The position numbers and the translations under genes were made by a program. DNA of 64,000 nucleotides from a virus, in IMG/VR virus record IMGVR_UViG_3300035670_000140, positions 1-64,000 of that record; one strand, 5' to 3'. Of the stretch, positions 4,183-53,531 are shown piece after piece. The notes below the pieces were generated by a model, which searched no databases, had not been told where the DNA came from, and was given only the letters and a program-made list of their open reading frames with translations. The stretch's first letter is position 1. The number at the start of each line of letters is the position of its first letter.

Positions 4183-4417
4183 CTATGGTAGAGATACAAA
4201 GTTTGGTGAACTATTCTACTTCACTTTACTACAATACAAACGTTATGCACTCTTACAATGCTCATTCTCATGGGATGATGAACCAGGACTTCCGTATATA
4301 CAGATCACTAGTGGATATGGTAAACTATTGAGTGTACTATTCTGTGCTTATCGATTCGGTTTTGATATTGATTTGTTGGGTAGAGTATGGTATAAGGACG
4401 AAGATATTACATCTTAA
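4169..4417 (+). CDS. Hypothetical protein, paralogue of 3123-3368
   Basis: AAGGAG SD; similarity to 3123-3368. Confidence 0.75.
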   Translation: MKLINYGRDTKFGELFYFTLLQYKRYALLQCSFSWDDEPGLPYIQITSGYGKLLSVLFCAYRFGFDIDLLGRVWYKDEDITS

Positions 4418-4422
4418 AGCTC

Positions 4423-4884
4423 ATGTACGATAAACCACCACAATACTTAATTGATGCTGTTCGTCGTGGAGATTGGATCGATCCAAAAGATCCATATGTC
4501 CGTAAGATGATGAGAGAAGAGAAGAAAAAAGAAAAAGAAAGAAAAAAACTTTTACAACAACAAGAAGAAATTCCTTTTGAACTTGAACAACGCTTTATTG
4601 ATAGGCGTATAGAATATCTAGAACGTGAACACGAACTTTTCGAAAAACAACAGGATTCTATTCATCATACTATTAACTGGAACTATCCTCTAACTTGTAA
4701 ATACGATCATTGTGGATGTACATCGATGAGAATAGTTGAGAAACCTAATTACATACATTATGCTGAGTATGTGTGTAATCTGTGTCATCGTCATAATGCT
4801 TGGATACCATACAAAGATAAAGAAAAAGTATTAAGTTTTCCACAGGTTACGGAGCATATTGTGGAAAACTGTGTGGAAAACTGA
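4423..4884 (+). CDS. Hypothetical protein with charged coiled coil and C-terminal Zn-ribbon
   Basis: CKYDHCG...HYAEYVCNLC Cys pairs. Confidence 0.7.
   Translation: MYDKPPQYLIDAVRRGDWIDPKDPYVRKMMREEKKKEKERKKLLQQQEEIPFELEQRFIDRRIEYLEREHELFEKQQDSIHHTINWNYPLTCKYDHCGCTSMRIVEKPNYIHYAEYVCNLCHRHNAWIPYKDKEKVLSFPQVTEHIVENCVEN
4834..4882. repeat. DnaA-box cluster 1 (three boxes)
   Basis: AGTTTTCCACA 4834-4844 and TGTGGAAAACT 4860-4870 and 4872-4882; the core TTTTCCACA equals the cyanobacterial DnaA-box consensus. Confidence 0.7.
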
Positions 4885-4979
4885 ATAATTAAAAATATGT
4901 TAAAAAATATAGATAGAGTGAAATGTATTGAGTATAACTAAATGTCTTAAAAAGTCTTTTAAGGTGCTCTGTGGTCGTT

Positions 4980-5008
4980 GGCTTAGCGTGTAACCCATCG
5001 AAAGTCAA
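4980..5008 (-). promoter_or_regulatory. Possible leftward sigma70 promoter
   Basis: Minus strand TTGACT (5008-5003), N17, TAAGCC (4985-4980); weak -10; no ORF downstream. Confidence 0.3.
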
Positions 5009-5016
5009 CTCTAAGG

Positions 5017-5074
5017 GTGCCAGTACCCAAAGTGTCACACAGACCCCTTGTAGGTCCTCCTAGTGCCTTATAAT
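5017..5074 (+). promoter_or_regulatory. Early promoter cassette 1: dyad plus -10
   Basis: GTGCCAGT-N6-AGTGTCAC; TATAAT 5069-5074. Confidence 0.75.
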
Positions 5075-5098
5075 TACAGAGTCGAACACAGAGACCAC

Positions 5099-5272
5099 AT
5101 GCTTACAGTCACTGAGACCACCACGAGGCAACTCAATGCTAACGAGAAACTCTCCCTGGACACACAGAGGGTCACAGAGGCATACCTGAAGCACTTGGCA
5201 GCAGGTGAGAAGCACGAAGCAATTGCCTATGCTAAAGTGTTGATGCTTAAGGCAATGGCAATGGGTCGATAG
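5099..5272 (+). CDS. Early hypothetical protein (57 aa)
   Basis: ATG5099 follows promoter 1 and an A/C-rich leader. Confidence 0.7.
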   Translation: MLTVTETTTRQLNANEKLSLDTQRVTEAYLKHLAAGEKHEAIAYAKVLMLKAMAMGR

Positions 5273-5304
5273 TTTTCCACAACCTGTGGAAACTGTGGAA
5301 AACT
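5271..5304. repeat. DnaA-box cluster 2 (two perfect, one 1-mismatch)
   Basis: AGTTTTCCACA 5271-5281, TGTGGAAAC 5285-5293, TGTGGAAAACT 5294-5304. Confidence 0.7.
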
Positions 5305-5423
5305 CAATTTTCACTTTTTTCAAAAATCTCAAAAACTGAAAAATCTTAAAAACTCAAAAAGTCAGATTTTTAAGAATTTAAGATTTTTCAAAAACTTTAA
5401 TTTTTAAATTTTAAGGATTTTCA
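5305..5423. repeat. A/T-tract region with a perfect 14-bp inverted repeat
   Basis: TGAAAAATCTTAAA 5337-5350 / TTTAAGATTTTTCA 5377-5390; line 5341-5400 has 10 G+C in 60 nt. Confidence 0.75.
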
Positions 5424-5660
5424 ATGTTTTTTAATTCTTTCGAAAGCTCAGCTATTAAACAAATTGAATTTGATAGTAATAAGCTTTGTATTGTCTTTAA
5501 TTCTTCAGATAAAGTATATGAATATGAAGTAAAAGATGAAGATTTTCTAGATATGCTTCAAAATGTAATTGTAAATGAAGAAAGTATTGGTAAATTCATC
5601 AATACTGCTATAAAGAATAAAGCAATTGTTGAATATACTAATCTAAATACTGCTAATTGA
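5424..5660 (+). CDS. KTSC-domain protein
   Basis: SSAIKQIEFD..L.IVF....VYEY.V ... SIGKFIN..IK signature; AAGGA SD. Confidence 0.75.
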   Translation: MFFNSFESSAIKQIEFDSNKLCIVFNSSDKVYEYEVKDEDFLDMLQNVIVNEESIGKFINTAIKNKAIVEYTNLNTAN

Positions 5661-5687
5661 TTCTAATTACTAACTAATCACAGACTA

Positions 5688-5855
5688 ATGGCTAAAATTA
5701 ATCGTAATTCAGTTCAATCTTCGAAATATAATAATCAAATCGAAGATGATTACGAAGACTTCGGGTATGATGTAAAGAATGCCCGACGTTATAAAACACA
5801 ATCCAAACGTACACCAAAATTCAAAGATTACAGTGATGAGTATGACAGTTTCTGA
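5688..5855 (+). CDS. Hypothetical protein (55 aa)
   Basis: Manually read MAKINRNSVQSSKYNNQIEDDYEDFGY...; stop lies inside dyad 2. Confidence 0.65.
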   Translation: MAKINRNSVQSSKYNNQIEDDYEDFGYDVKNARRYKTQSKRTPKFKDYSDEYDSF

Positions 5856-5898
5856 ACTGTCCACTGATCACCCTATGGTGGCAGATCTGGTGTATTGT
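5842..5898 (+). promoter_or_regulatory. Early promoter cassette 2
   Basis: ATGACAGT-N6-ACTGTCCAC; TATTGT 5893-5898. Confidence 0.7.
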
Positions 5899-5922
5899 AT
5901 ATGAGTCGTCAGGAATTGACCT

Positions 5923-6093
5923 TTGAAAACTATTCGAATTCAAGTTGAAACTTACGATGGTTGTACAACTATCTGGTATGAGAAGTCCAGACTAAAGAAT
6001 CCCACCGACGCTATCTGTAAGCGTGTGAATGAACAATTGTGTGGATTGAATATTAAAAGGATCGAAGTGGCACTGTCACCAGCTACCGTGTGA
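5923..6093 (+). CDS. Early hypothetical protein (56 aa, TTG start)
   Basis: AGGA SD; MKTIRIQVETYDGCTTIWYEKS...; TGA inside dyad 3. Confidence 0.65.
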   Translation: MKTIRIQVETYDGCTTIWYEKSRLKNPTDAICKRVNEQLCGLNIKRIEVALSPATV

Positions 6094-6147
6094 CAGTTCA
6101 GCAAGTGTCCACAGGGGGTTGACTCTGCCCCCAATCCACCCTATATT
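6090..6147 (+). promoter_or_regulatory. Early promoter cassette 3
   Basis: GTGACAGT-N6-AGTGTCCAC; TTGACT-N17-TATATT. Confidence 0.8.
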
Positions 6148-6174: not shown

Positions 6175-6507
6175 ATGAGAAAGATCGAACGCCAAATGAA
6201 CGCTGCCATTCGTGACAGCAAGGATTGGCAATCTGGCAACACTCGTGTTGTGTTTGATGAGGCAGAGAACGTCTCCAAAGTGTTTCTCCATGGCAACCAC
6301 ATCGCTGATATCGGTGATAACTTCATCCGACTGTTTGACGGTGGTTGGCAATCCAACACCACCAAATCTCGGTTGAATGCTATTCTTCGTGAGCATGGTG
6401 AGACTGGTGATTGTGTGTTTCAGAAGAAGTTTGAGTGGTTTGTTCAAATGAACACTGCTCAAGGTTTGACCACTGTTCCTTTCTTTTCTTCGATGAGGTT
6501 GGGTTGA
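6175..6507 (+). CDS. Conserved cyanophage early hypothetical protein
   Basis: MRKIERQMNAAI...GGWQSNTTKSRLNA; directly downstream of promoter 3. Confidence 0.85.
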   Translation: MRKIERQMNAAIRDSKDWQSGNTRVVFDEAENVSKVFLHGNHIADIGDNFIRLFDGGWQSNTTKSRLNAILREHGETGDCVFQKKFEWFVQMNTAQGLTTVPFFSSMRLG

Positions 6508-9028: not shown

Positions 9029-9190
9029 ATGACCTGCTCCAACGCCTACCGCTCCCAGTTCGCCCCCCAGTACGATGATCGCTTCCTGGACTGTGAGCAC
9101 GATGACCTGATGACCGCCGATGATTACGATGCCCGCCGCTGGGAGCGTGACGGATGGGGTGAGGCACAATACGATCGCCAGCGGTGGTGA
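9029..9190 (+). CDS. Early hypothetical protein (53 aa)
   Basis: Manually read MTCSNAYRSQFAPQYDDRF...; same leader as 7602 and 8448. Confidence 0.7.
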   Translation: MTCSNAYRSQFAPQYDDRFLDCEHDDLMTADDYDARRWERDGWGEAQYDRQRW

Positions 9191-9205
9191 CCCCTGCCCC
9201 CCATC

Positions 9206-9238: not shown

Positions 9239-9424
9239 ATGGCACTGTTCAACCAAGCAACCGACCTCAAGACCCGTCAGACCATCTGGGTCAGCACCAA
9301 CGTCGTTAAGGGTCGCCCCCAGATGAACTCTCACCGTGAGGGTCGCTGTGGCGCCTCACTGGCAGAGGCAGGCATCGATGGGTTCTGTGCTGCTGAGTGG
9401 GCAGGACTTCATCACGGGGGTTGA
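9239..9424 (+). CDS. Early hypothetical protein
   Basis: Downstream of extended -10; stop overlaps the next -35. Confidence 0.7.
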   Translation: MALFNQATDLKTRQTIWVSTNVVKGRPQMNSHREGRCGASLAEAGIDGFCAAEWAGLHHGG

Positions 9425-9449
9425 CCCCTCGCCCCCTACCCTGTACAAT
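9421..9449 (+). promoter_or_regulatory. Sigma70-type promoter
   Basis: TTGACC-N17-TACAAT. Confidence 0.75.
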
Positions 9450-11476: not shown

Positions 11477-13279
11477 ATGGCATCATACGTACAAGTCTCT
11501 AATTTAGACTTCAATCAAATTAAAACTGCTCTAAAGGAATATCTTAGAGCACAATCAGACTTCACTTCGTATGATTTTGAAGGATCAGCGATGAATGTCC
11601 TTTTGGACGTTCTTGCTTACAACACTTATTACACAGCATTCAATGCTAACATGCTGGTGAATGAGTTGTTTCTGGACTCGGCAACCCTCAGGGACAACGT
11701 TGTAGCACTTGCTAAGCAGTTAGGGTATAGACCAAAATCAAAGGTCGCTCCTGAGGCGAAAATTACTTTTAGAGTGGAATATAATGGTACAGCTCCAAAG
11801 ACTGCTGTACTAAAAAAGGGCACAGGTTTCACAACTGTATTTGATGAGACTTTATATTCTTTCGTTTGTGTTGAAGATCAGTCAGCACCTGTGGAAAACG
11901 GTGTTGCTTACTTCGACGATATTCCCATTTACGAAGGAACTGTTGTTACTAACAAATTTGTTGTTAATACTTCACTGACTCAACGTTTCATTATTCAAAA
12001 TGCCGATGTTGATATCAGCTCCATTCGTGTTAAAGTTTTTGACAGTATTCAGTCAACTTTCTATGAAATCTACGAATATGCTGACAACATTCTGAATGTA
12101 ACTCCAAATTCTAGAATTTTCTTCCTGGAAGAGATTGAAGATGAAAGATATCAATTATTCTTTGGTGATGGTATTCTAGGTAAAGCATTGGAGAATGGAC
12201 AAGAGATTGAAGTTTCGTATTTGATTACCAACGGTGCTGCTACAAATGGCGCTAAAAACTTTACATACAATGGCGTACTAACAGATTTAATTGGTGCTAC
12301 TGGTTATCCAAATACTGTCATTATTAATCCTGCTGCTACTGTTGTTGCTAACGGCGGTGCTGACATCGAATCAATTGCTAAAATTAAATATAATGCCCCA
12401 AAATATTTTGGTACACAAGATCGTGCTGTTACTGCTGACGATTATGCTGCTATCGTTAGAAACATTTACCCAGCGATTTCCGACATTATTACGTTCGGTG
12501 GAGAAGAAGACGAACCACCTGAGTATGGTAAAGTAAAAATCGTAATCAAACCATCATCTGCTAGCTTCTTATCTTCTACTACAAAGAGAGATATTGTAGC
12601 AAAACTGAAGAAGTATATGGTTGCTTCGGTGATTCCAGAAATCATTGATCCATCAATTCTTTATATCGAAGCAACTAGTAATATCTACTATTCACAATCT
12701 ATCACCACCCAGAGACCAGAGGAGATTAGAAATAAGGTAGTTTCTGGTGTAGAAGCATATCTAGCACAATCAACGGTAGAAAAGTTTAACGGAAAGTTTA
12801 GATTTAGTAAATTTGTATCAACAATTGATAATTCTGATCGTTCAATCAATTCAAATGCTACAACGATTAAAATGAGAAAGGATTTCTATCCTCAAATCAA
12901 TTCTTCATCTTACTACGAGCTTTGCTTCCAGAATCCATTTGACAAAGATTGTGAAGGTCCAACGCTTCAGTCAACAGGATTCAAAGTCACCGAGTTCCCT
13001 ACCTACACAGTGTATTTCGAAGATAGGGATGGCATAATCGTCCTATATAGAATAGACAGTTTAACTGGTGAAAAAATTACATTAAATGATTCTCTAGGTA
13101 CAGTAGATTATGACAAAGGCGAAGTTAAACTATACAATTTAACTATCGTTCAAGGTAGTTTTGATGATAATAAGATTGAAGTACGTGTAAATCCACTTTC
13201 TAATGATATCAGTGCTTCAAGAGAAGTGTATCTAGATGTAGATATCAGCAAGAGTAAATTTACTGCGTATCCAGAGTAA
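11477..13279 (+). CDS. gp6: Baseplate wedge subunit gp6
   Basis: LDFNQIK..L..YL...FTSYDFEGS; QDRAVTADDY; follows gp25. Confidence 0.93.
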   Translation: MASYVQVSNLDFNQIKTALKEYLRAQSDFTSYDFEGSAMNVLLDVLAYNTYYTAFNANMLVNELFLDSATLRDNVVALAKQLGYRPKSKVAPEAKITFRVEYNGTAPKTAVLKKGTGFTTVFDETLYSFVCVEDQSAPVENGVAYFDDIPIYEGTVVTNKFVVNTSLTQRFIIQNADVDISSIRVKVFDSIQSTFYEIYEYADNILNVTPNSRIFFLEEIEDERYQLFFGDGILGKALENGQEIEVSYLITNGAATNGAKNFTYNGVLTDLIGATGYPNTVIINPAATVVANGGADIESIAKIKYNAPKYFGTQDRAVTADDYAAIVRNIYPAISDIITFGGEEDEPPEYGKVKIVIKPSSASFLSSTTKRDIVAKLKKYMVASVIPEIIDPSILYIEATSNIYYSQSITTQRPEEIRNKVVSGVEAYLAQSTVEKFNGKFRFSKFVSTIDNSDRSINSNATTIKMRKDFYPQINSSSYYELCFQNPFDKDCEGPTLQSTGFKVTEFPTYTVYFEDRDGIIVLYRIDSLTGEKITLNDSLGTVDYDKGEVKLYNLTIVQGSFDDNKIEVRVNPLSNDISASREVYLDVDISKSKFTAYPE

Positions 13280-51901: not shown

Positions 51902-53531
51902 GTTTGTACACGAAACATTTATACCATTTTTAAAAGAACATAAAGATTCTATTTTCGATCTTTACTTCACTTGTAGAATGCCTCCCTTTGATCAAGATGC
52001 TATGGGAGATGTATTTGTTTCAGATCCTAGACAAACAACTTTTGATGCTCTGTACATCTCAAAAGAATCTGGTATTCCTTTGTCTGCTACATTTAATAAC
52101 ATTTATGTAAGACCATCTCAAAAGAATCTTGATCTATTCATAGAAAATTTTAAAACCCTGTACGACAAAGGAATTCGTATAGTTACTTTACCCCATACTA
52201 TTTGGGTTTCTACTGGGCAAATACAGAAAGAGTTTCCAGAACTCTACATTAAGAATACTATTCTTAGAGAAGTTCGTCAAGCAAACGAAATTGTTTCTTT
52301 AGCGAAAGCTGGGTTTCATTATATCAATCTCGATAGAGATCTGATGAGGGATCGTGATGCTTTGTTAGAGATCAAAGAAGCAAAGGATTATTGTGAGTCC
52401 ATAAACAAACCAATAAAATTATCATTGTTGGTTAATGAGACTTGCTGGGGTGGATGTCCAATTATGGTAGAACACTATCACTATAACAATACCAGAAAAG
52501 ATGAAGACCCTCAATTTTTTAATGATCCTATTAGTAGAAATTCTTGCTCTAAGTGGGAAATACTAGACCCATCTCATTCTCTCAAAGCAGCAAACCTTCC
52601 TCCTTGGAAAAAGGATTGGGAAGAGTTTATTGATCTTGGTATTGATGTATTTAAACTTCATGGAAGAGAATCCATGATGAGATTAAAAGAATCGATGGAT
52701 CTTATTGAAAGATGGGATAACAATGAAGAGTTAATGTTCCCTCTGTTTAATGAATATATTGAAAATGTTTCTTTACAAGAACGTCCAATCGATATCTGGA
52801 GAGAAAAAATTAAGACTTGTAAGTTTGATTGTTGGAAATGTAATTATTGTGAGTCAGTTGTAGAATCTAGATTAAAAAAACAAAACAGATTACTTCATCC
52901 ATTGGTAGAGAATATTATTAAATCTATTGACAACTCAGCTAACCAGAAAGATTATTCTATTCCAGGTCTCAGTTCTAACAGAGTAAGAACTTTACTTAAT
53001 TCTATTTGTTCTGATAATAGTATTAAGTATTTGGAAGTGGGTGCTTATCTTGGTAGTACATTCTGTGCTGCTATAGAAAACAATAATATCAAATCTTATG
53101 CTGTTGATAATTGGAAGACTCCCGACCTAAAACCATTTGAAAATAAATTAGTTTTTGCTGGCATTGCTTCCATAGAAGATTTTAAAAATAATGTAAGTTC
53201 AACTAAATCAGGATCAACTGTAAAAATTTTAAATAAAACATGTTTAAAGTTAATTGATGGAGATATAGAAGATAAGATTAATTTTGTATTTTATGATGGA
53301 GATCATGAATACAATGAACAACTAAAAGCTTTAAACGTCATCAAAGATTTTGTTGATAGTACATTTGTTTTGATATTAGATGATGCTAATTTCGAAGGTG
53401 TTGTTTCTTCTGCTAATCAGTTTATTCTAGATAATAATTTCAAAGTTTTGTTTGAAAGAAAGCTTTTAAACAAAGTGGAAGATCCTTCAATGTGGTGGAA
53501 TGGTTTGTATATACTTGTTTTACAAAAATGA
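51852..53531 (+). CDS. U32-family Fe-S protein fused to class I SAM methyltransferase
   Basis: INLDRDL, VNETCWGGC, VFKLHGRE, CKFDCWKCNYC; C-terminal YLEVGAYLGST, FYDGDH, LILDD. Confidence 0.75.
   Translation: MKSKNFSLPINPKSSSEFVHETFIPFLKEHKDSIFDLYFTCRMPPFDQDAMGDVFVSDPRQTTFDALYISKESGIPLSATFNNIYVRPSQKNLDLFIENFKTLYDKGIRIVTLPHTIWVSTGQIQKEFPELYIKNTILREVRQANEIVSLAKAGFHYINLDRDLMRDRDALLEIKEAKDYCESINKPIKLSLLVNETCWGGCPIMVEHYHYNNTRKDEDPQFFNDPISRNSCSKWEILDPSHSLKAANLPPWKKDWEEFIDLGIDVFKLHGRESMMRLKESMDLIERWDNNEELMFPLFNEYIENVSLQERPIDIWREKIKTCKFDCWKCNYCESVVESRLKKQNRLLHPLVENIIKSIDNSANQKDYSIPGLSSNRVRTLLNSICSDNSIKYLEVGAYLGSTFCAAIENNNIKSYAVDNWKTPDLKPFENKLVFAGIASIEDFKNNVSSTKSGSTVKILNKTCLKLIDGDIEDKINFVFYDGDHEYNEQLKALNVIKDFVDSTFVLILDDANFEGVVSSANQFILDNNFKVLFERKLLNKVEDPSMWWNGLYILVLQK

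Follow-up and report, generated by a model that had tools for sequence, protein, structure and literature searches.

Within 470 bp of a 64,000-nucleotide stretch of viral DNA (positions 1 to 64,000 of IMG/VR record IMGVR_UViG_3300035670_000140; hereafter the window) lie two clusters of a motif that very probably represents the DnaA box of cyanobacteria, the binding site of the host replication initiator. The phage, a T4-like virus infecting marine cyanobacteria, is a member of the Kyanoviridae, as indicated by a Kyano_Gp96 match at 6175-6507. The architecture of the arrays appears to match that of DnaA regulatory or recycling sites and not that of an origin, and we tentatively favor the explanation that the two clusters are non-origin docking sites for host DnaA, which would gate adjacent early promoters, soak up or modulate DnaA, or do both. 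Kyanoviridae are among the most abundant viruses of the ocean's primary producers, their origins of replication and early regulatory circuits have yet to be mapped, and conserved sites for a host initiator are unexpected in phages with a complete T4-type replisome. Our literature search found no published report linking DnaA boxes to cyanophages, and Sullivan 2010, which covers the cyanophage P-SSM7, mentions neither DnaA nor an origin.

Box clusters and the host DnaA box

A recount of the motif bore out the description given by the first-pass annotation of this DNA: five perfect copies of the 11-mer AGTTTTCCACA and a single 9-mer with one mismatch, TGTGGAAAC, make up the six boxes, and these fall into two clusters that share the order one forward (F), two reverse (R). 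With spacers in bp and R' for the mismatched box, the layout is F-15-R-3-R in cluster 1 and F-3-R'-0-R in cluster 2 (coordinates in Table 1). The two reverse boxes of cluster 1, at 4860 and 4872, read TGTGGAAAA-CTG-TGTGGAAAA. A possible degenerate reverse box in the 15-nt spacer of cluster 1, if counted, would give a 12-nt phasing of the form F-R'-R-R, and near-boxes of the CGGAA type stand at its position in relatives. The AT-rich DNA said to follow each cluster was likewise found in a composition scan, with a GC content of about 0.26 at 4850-4949 and 0.19 at 5300-5449; positions 5301-5440, most of which belong to the leader of a KTSC-domain gene, have the joint lowest GC among all 120-nt spans of the window.

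The core 9-mer TTTTCCACA occurs seven times in the 64 kb compared to 1.2 expected, and none of 100 shuffled sequences reached seven. This count, which the annotation had proposed as a check, shows that the boxes are concentrated at the one locus. The two outlying copies, at 11890 and 17553, are isolated as originally noted and lie within long structural open reading frames (ORFs); the second is also a perfect 11-mer (from 17551). The whole 76-kb contig contains no TTTTCCACA beyond the same seven.

The same 9-mer has been described as the cyanobacterial DnaA box (PMC5987646), and we compared the phage arrays with those of cyanobacterial genomes. Host origins were sought via dnaN, the genome contigs first matched by pattern being mostly not beside dnaA or dnaN. 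The biggest TTTTCCACA cluster lies just upstream of dnaN in two cyanobacterial genomes, and box arrays were found 150-900 bp upstream of dnaN in 26 of the 30 Cyanobacteriia sampled, where the flanks follow the form (A/G)G-box-G(G/A). The phage boxes are flanked as AG-box-G/A, matching this preference, and their start-to-start gaps of 9, 12-14 and 20-24 nt recur in host origin arrays. A 12-nt R-R period is the commonest among the tandem boxes of relatives. E. coli DnaA in vivo favors tandem boxes placed 2-3 bp apart, termed the 'double DnaA box' (PMC11317965), and the 12-nt tandem pair of the phage has exactly such a spacing, at 3 bp. No DnaA-type DNA-binding domain (Bac_DnaA_C, PF08299) was found in five phage records, one of them a complete genome. 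On these comparisons the phage motifs are very probably real DnaA boxes, and host DnaA is probably the protein that reads them.

A different reader is conceivable, such as an early protein of the phage or some host factor distinct from DnaA; the match to the DnaA box would then have arisen by coincidence or mimicry. Among the cyanophages sampled the arrays occur only in Kyanoviridae, as would suit a family-specific reader, and they are placed in a control module specific to that family. We nevertheless consider such a reader unlikely, given that the match to the host box is 9/9 and extends to the host's flank preference and to its spacing rules of 9, 12 and 21 nt. The same extended pair of boxes also recurs in the genomes of bacteria from many phyla, DnaA being common to them, and the tolerance of 3-5 and 14-15 nt spacers and of arrays in a single orientation is ill-suited to a rigid dimeric repressor. 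There is, in addition, no co-occurring candidate gene: the ORF at 4423-4884, which overlaps cluster 1, was absent from the fetched relative loci by tblastn, and the association of boxes with the KTSC gene is weak (odds ratio 4.2, p = 0.011, with relatedness and truncated loci ignored).

Relatives were collected in two ways, by DNA pattern and by the gp96 protein; gp96 was present in 40 of the 120 viral loci found by pattern. Conservation in relatives had been put forward in the annotation as a check, and it holds in part: at least two perfect boxes are kept in 26 of 80 gp96-anchored relatives (about one third) and are missing in the other two thirds. Arrays are present in the isolates Syn9 (52,565-52,597), P-SSM7, ACG-2014g and S-RIM44. 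In nine complete or near-complete cluster-bearing genomes and two partial contigs, the clusters are confined to a single locus. Across the window and two relatives (L258 and L266) the boxes are invariant, and the spacers and the upstream gene differ (alignment A1).

The behavior of the arrays among relatives bears on the suggestion that they are functionless today, a scar of recombination or a repeat of mobile kind, left at cassette-shuffling junctions or captured as a fragment of host DNA. The clusters do occupy different slots across relatives and bracket variable cassettes, namely a 57-aa ORF in the window and the KTSC gene with the next gene in another relative (L019). Such an origin for the arrays seems extremely improbable to us, as the boxes stay perfect while the neighboring DNA diverges and their internal layout is non-random. 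Simple capture from the host is further disfavored because the arrangement differs from that of the host oriC.

Array orientation compared with origins and other DnaA sites

The arrays upstream of dnaN, which hold 2-11 perfect boxes (typically 4-7), are divergent in 26 of 26 host genomes, with reverse boxes followed by forward boxes. The phage arrays run the other way. Among 33 independent phage clusters in the gp96 set, 22 are convergent (FRR 11, FR 5, FFR 4, FFRR 1 and FFFR 1), one is purely divergent (RF), three are mixed with some R-F junctions (RFRF, FRFR and FRF), and the remaining seven are in a single orientation. In IMG/VR the extended convergent pair was found in at least 119 stretches, compared to 40 stretches with the divergent one. 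In bacterial origins, as at the oriC of E. coli and B. subtilis, tandem boxes have the DnaA-trios and the unwinding element past their CACA end (PMC8287927). The AT-rich DNA of the phages instead meets the TTTT end of the nearest box, in both clusters of the window and in 17 of 21 clusters of relatives. For the most part, the phage arrays have neither the outward-facing CACA ends of an oriC nor AT-rich DNA past the CACA end. The annotation had proposed an oriC-like element as one of its two readings, the other being a DnaA decoy; we found no support for the oriC-like architecture because the arrays are convergent rather than divergent and the AT-rich DNA is at the wrong end of the boxes, and the two thirds of relatives that have no boxes also speak against it. 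A GC-skew signal, which the annotation had suggested looking for, was absent at the locus: in two complete genomes both GC and AT skew rise monotonically with no inflection there, the rise being driven by gene orientation.

Likeness to the cyanobacterial oriC therefore ends with the boxes themselves. The two share the identical 9-mer, the G/AG flank preference and AT-rich DNA nearby, and spacings of 9, 11-12 and 21-23 nt recur in both; the phage clusters differ in being convergent, in having three boxes each and in lying outside a dnaA/dnaN context.

A phage origin of another kind, merely assisted by DnaA, was also considered. The early promoter and AT-rich palindromic leader would here act as at T4 oriF and oriG, with an R-loop priming the leading strand, and DnaA bound to the flanking clusters would help to open or mark the region, as do the boxes on both sides at P1 oriR. 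The single locus per genome agrees with this proposal, as does the presence, in the window and several relatives, of two sub-clusters 0.4-1 kb apart that bracket the promoter and the AT-rich block. The leader not only has the joint lowest GC of the window but carries a 24-nt inverted repeat (5337-5360 / 5367-5390); in a complete genome (G068) the counterpart of this leader, placed between two box clusters, has the lowest GC of the entire 194 kb; and an AT-rich flank stands beside 68% of box clusters compared to 8% of random positions. We still regard a DnaA-assisted origin as unlikely. The box orientation is opposite to that of all 26 host origins, with the AT-rich DNA at the TTTT end as described above. 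Two thirds of the relatives keep the rest of the module without boxes, and the AT-rich leader tracks the KTSC gene, not the boxes. The lowest-GC DNA of P-SSM7 is elsewhere and GC skew passes monotonically through the locus. T4-type replication, moreover, needs no DnaA, a protein that PMC3016281 never mentions. In that account T4 oriF and oriG are defined by a promoter followed by an A+T-rich unwinding element; DnaA boxes are absent from them and their promoters are of the MotA middle type, whereas the AT block here is the leader of the KTSC gene. A TTGACA-N17-TATAAT promoter directly precedes this leader in relatives; in the window the 57-aa ORF and cluster 2 intervene.

The closest architectural likeness we found is to the DnaA-reactivating sequences (DARS) of E. 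coli, which help ADP-DnaA to release its ADP. The cores of DARS1 and DARS2 hold three boxes, of which box I is opposed to the tandem boxes II and III with the CACA ends facing, and both phage clusters have this F,R,R order. Boxes I and II of DARS are opposed at 5 bp and boxes II and III are in tandem (PMC6868365). DARS1 as read from the MG1655 genome (NC_000913.3) is F-5-R-3-R. Cluster 1 of the window ends in the same R-3-R, relatives have F-(3-5)-R-3-R or 14-15 bp followed by 3 bp, and the complete genome G068 has the exact DARS1 spacing of 5 and 3 bp (14 and 12 nt start-to-start). The window differs in its F-R spacers of 15 and 3 bp instead of 5, in the abutting reverse boxes of cluster 2, and in that no IHF or Fis sites are implied in the phage arrays. 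To our knowledge, no DARS has been reported from a cyanobacterium or a virus.

Other known DnaA sites offer partial parallels. The double boxes of the E. coli DnaA regulon (PMC11317965) are, like the phage tandem pair, 2-3 bp apart and near promoters; the phage adds an opposed third box, and its host is a cyanobacterium. The layout thus appears to fit a DARS core or a double-box regulatory site better than datA or oriC. Like the phage arrays, datA in E. coli and the clusters of DnaA boxes in B. subtilis lie outside the origin; these loci titrate or inactivate DnaA and can lower initiation potential when amplified. A locus of the datA type pairs its boxes with a site for a bending protein and stimulates DnaA-ATP hydrolysis or titrates DnaA. 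In box number, the phage arrays are smaller. As a separate observation, the cyanobacterial genome G005 (L251) has a non-oriC cluster of perfect boxes in the order F,R,R at 5115228-5115278, inside a gene for an AMP-binding enzyme, and may be an equivalent of DARS or datA in cyanobacteria.

Because mixed arrays are inverted repeats, they might act as RNA, with the inverted boxes forming stem-loops that terminate or stabilize transcripts at gene ends in the manner of the promoter/stem-loop (PeSL) cassettes known from other T4-type phages. The predicted hairpins have energies of -14.6 to -18.1 kcal/mol and z-scores of -1.5 to -4.6. A U-rich tail comes after cluster 2, which starts at a stop codon, and on the minus strand a U-run comes after cluster 1; the region is, besides, a cassette-rich early island with other stem-loop promoters (PMC4122927). 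PeSL cassettes (PMC2839356, PMC4122927) resemble the arrays in that both are inverted repeats standing by early promoters where cassettes meet, within an early region that is hyperplastic. These similarities notwithstanding, a role as RNA hairpins appears very unlikely to us. The seven clusters of the gp96 set in a single orientation can form no hairpin, S-RIM44 has an RRR array, and the existence of such arrays among relatives (FF, FFF, RR, RRR and RRRR) indicates that the box and not the hairpin is the unit. Spacer lengths are bimodal, 4 versus 14-15, and this difference of one helical turn points to a constraint on the face of the DNA rather than on a loop. Most copies have no U-tail, and a promoter/terminator scan called no terminator at either cluster. 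PeSLs have G(n)-loop-C(n) or similar stems and occur many times per genome, while the box arrays are found at one locus and match the site of a host protein; a hairpin would not account for why the sequence equals the host box, flanks included.

Possible docking of host DnaA

The explanation that we tentatively favor, non-origin docking of host DnaA, would operate as follows. DnaA would bind one box that faces two tandem boxes, with the CACA ends inward as in the DARS core. The boxes adjoin a conserved AT element and sit in the leader between the early promoter and the AT-rich KTSC leader, and DnaA bound there may gate local early transcription, since the boxes occupy the position of a repressor or roadblock, over the -35 or just past the start. 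A second consequence could follow from copy number. A small cyanobacterial genome has only 14-21 perfect boxes overall, with 6-7 at oriC, so that a single phage genome adds a comparable number. As phage genomes multiply, their arrays would come to exceed the host's own perfect boxes and might act as a DnaA sink or as a modulator of its nucleotide state, thereby disturbing host initiation. A stronger form of this idea is that the virus carries a cis-acting DARS-like (or datA-like) array that alters the nucleotide state or availability of DnaA and reprograms or stalls host initiation by DNA sites and not by a protein; we hold this to be unlikely.

Several observations weigh against the docking explanation. 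Perfect boxes are distributed patchily, and S-WAM2 is among the two thirds of relatives that have none. The three T7-like cyanophages searched (S-CBP42, P-SSP7 and Syn5) have no box clusters, which indicates no convergence toward the host factor across families. A Prochlorococcus-like genome of 1.7 Mb shows no clear cluster of perfect boxes, though P-SSM7 infects Prochlorococcus. The arrays stand at varying distances from the presumed promoter elements, and the AT element may be a promoter, a bend or an unwinding site. With 3-7 boxes the arrays are small for a sink, and the mixed clusters also fold as hairpins of -14 to -18 kcal/mol. We also know of no description of DARS or datA activity outside the proteobacteria.

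If correct, docking of host DnaA would tie phage development to the replication and growth state of the host, which is light-dependent in cyanobacteria, and the arrays would be the first element of the DARS, datA or DnaA-regulon type on a lytic phage. The idea is directly testable, as cultured, genetically tractable isolates (Syn9, P-SSM7, S-RIM44 and ACG-2014g) share the module.

Surrounding module and neighboring genes

Relatives show a common gene order around the boxes. A box cluster with the AT element is followed by the conserved CTTAGC..GTCAA module, a dyad and an early TTGACA/TATAAT promoter; after the promoter come sometimes a second box cluster, then the AT-rich leader, the KTSC gene, a small gene and gp96. 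Boxes occupy three slots in this arrangement: beside the AT element, in the interval that separates the early promoter from the AT-rich leader, and ahead of the promoter of gp96. The coordinates in the window are collected in Table 1.

Table 1. Boxes and neighboring features of the locus, in window coordinates
Feature	Position	Strand	Basis or remark
Cluster 1 forward DnaA box, AG-TTTTCCACA (perfect 11-mer)	4834-4844	+	Conserved in L258 (alignment A1)
Possible degenerate reverse box TACGGAGCA	4848-4856	-	In 15-nt spacer; 5/9 matches, weak
Cluster 1 reverse DnaA box (perfect 11-mer)	4860-4870	-	Conserved in L258 (alignment A1)
Cluster 1 second reverse box (perfect 11-mer)	4872-4882	-	3 bp past the first; pair forms a 'double DnaA box'
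Cluster 2 forward DnaA box (perfect 11-mer)	5271-5281	+	Overlaps TAG stop of 57-aa ORF
Cluster 2 reverse box, one mismatch, TGTGGAAAC	5285-5293	-	Motif search, alignment A1
Cluster 2 reverse DnaA box (perfect 11-mer)	5294-5304	-	Motif search, alignment A1
Small zinc-ribbon protein gene	4423-4884	+	ORF; last ~18 codons cover cluster 1
AT-rich flank with conserved AT element (~4889-4916, TTAAAAATATGTTAAAAAATATAG)	4885-4960		Composition, relatives
Conserved CTTAGC..GTCAA module (GTTGGCTTAGCG..ATCGAAAGTCAAC)	4977-5009	-	Matches S-WAM2 and >25 relatives
Dyad GTGCCAGT..GTGTCACAC at head of early-gene cassette	5017-5040		Sequence, relatives
Early promoter-like site, -10 TATAAT at 5069-5074, weak -35	5048-5074	+	TTGACA-N17-TATAAT in relatives
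57-aa GC-rich ORF between promoter and cluster 2	5099-5272	+	Closest relatives only
A-tract, inverted-repeat AT-rich leader, 16.7-19% GC	5305-5423		Directly upstream of KTSC gene
KTSC-domain early gene	5424-5660	+	Pfam PF13619, phrog_4357

The AT element is followed in relatives by TAnTGTG and lies within about 35 nt of the box clusters, on either side. The CTTAGC..GTCAA module is preserved nearly letter for letter in more than 25 Kyanoviridae loci, with or without boxes, including S-WAM2, Syn9, ACG-2014g and S-RIM44; its minus strand reads TTGAC-N17-CTAAG and resembles a promoter that would fire leftward, toward the boxes and the AT element. Both the AT element and the CTTAGC module remain in box-less relatives (S-WAM2, L048 and L315), and the boxes are therefore an optional addition to the control region. 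The AT-rich leader, a candidate unwinding element or 5' leader, is also conserved in S-WAM2 and others.

The zinc-ribbon ORF at 4423-4884 gave no match in Pfam and PHROG searches. Its homologues (P0002-P0006) stop near the equivalent of nt ~4828, about 18 codons earlier, which places cluster 1 in an unconserved tail of the ORF. A link between this ORF and the boxes was considered and rejected on account of that tail and of the tblastn result given above. The annotation had placed the locus at the head of the early island; this was roughly right, with the correction that small ORFs on the same strand run on upstream. The 57-aa ORF has about 50% GC in a genome of 36% GC, is found only in the closest relatives (L253, L256 and L258) and appears to be a recently acquired cassette.

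An Rfam scan of 4300-6000 and a tRNA scan gave no match, and no psbA was found in the contig. Gp96-family homologues are also present beyond the Kyanoviridae, in the T7-like cyanophage S-CBP42 and in phages of Vibrio, Stenotrophomonas, Pseudomonas and Ralstonia. In Syn9 (L366, NC_008296.2), the coding sequence annotated as gp86 (52477-52635) covers the box pair at 52565/52589 together with the AT element, extends into the first part of the CTTAGC module, and is probably not a gene. Elsewhere in the window, stem-loops of the form G5-TTGAC..C5 at 6114-6132, 9183-9201 and 9416-9434 share sequence with the -35 of early promoters, one such promoter being TTGACT-17-TATATT at 6119-6147, and resemble the RB49-type PeSL cassettes of other T4-type phages.

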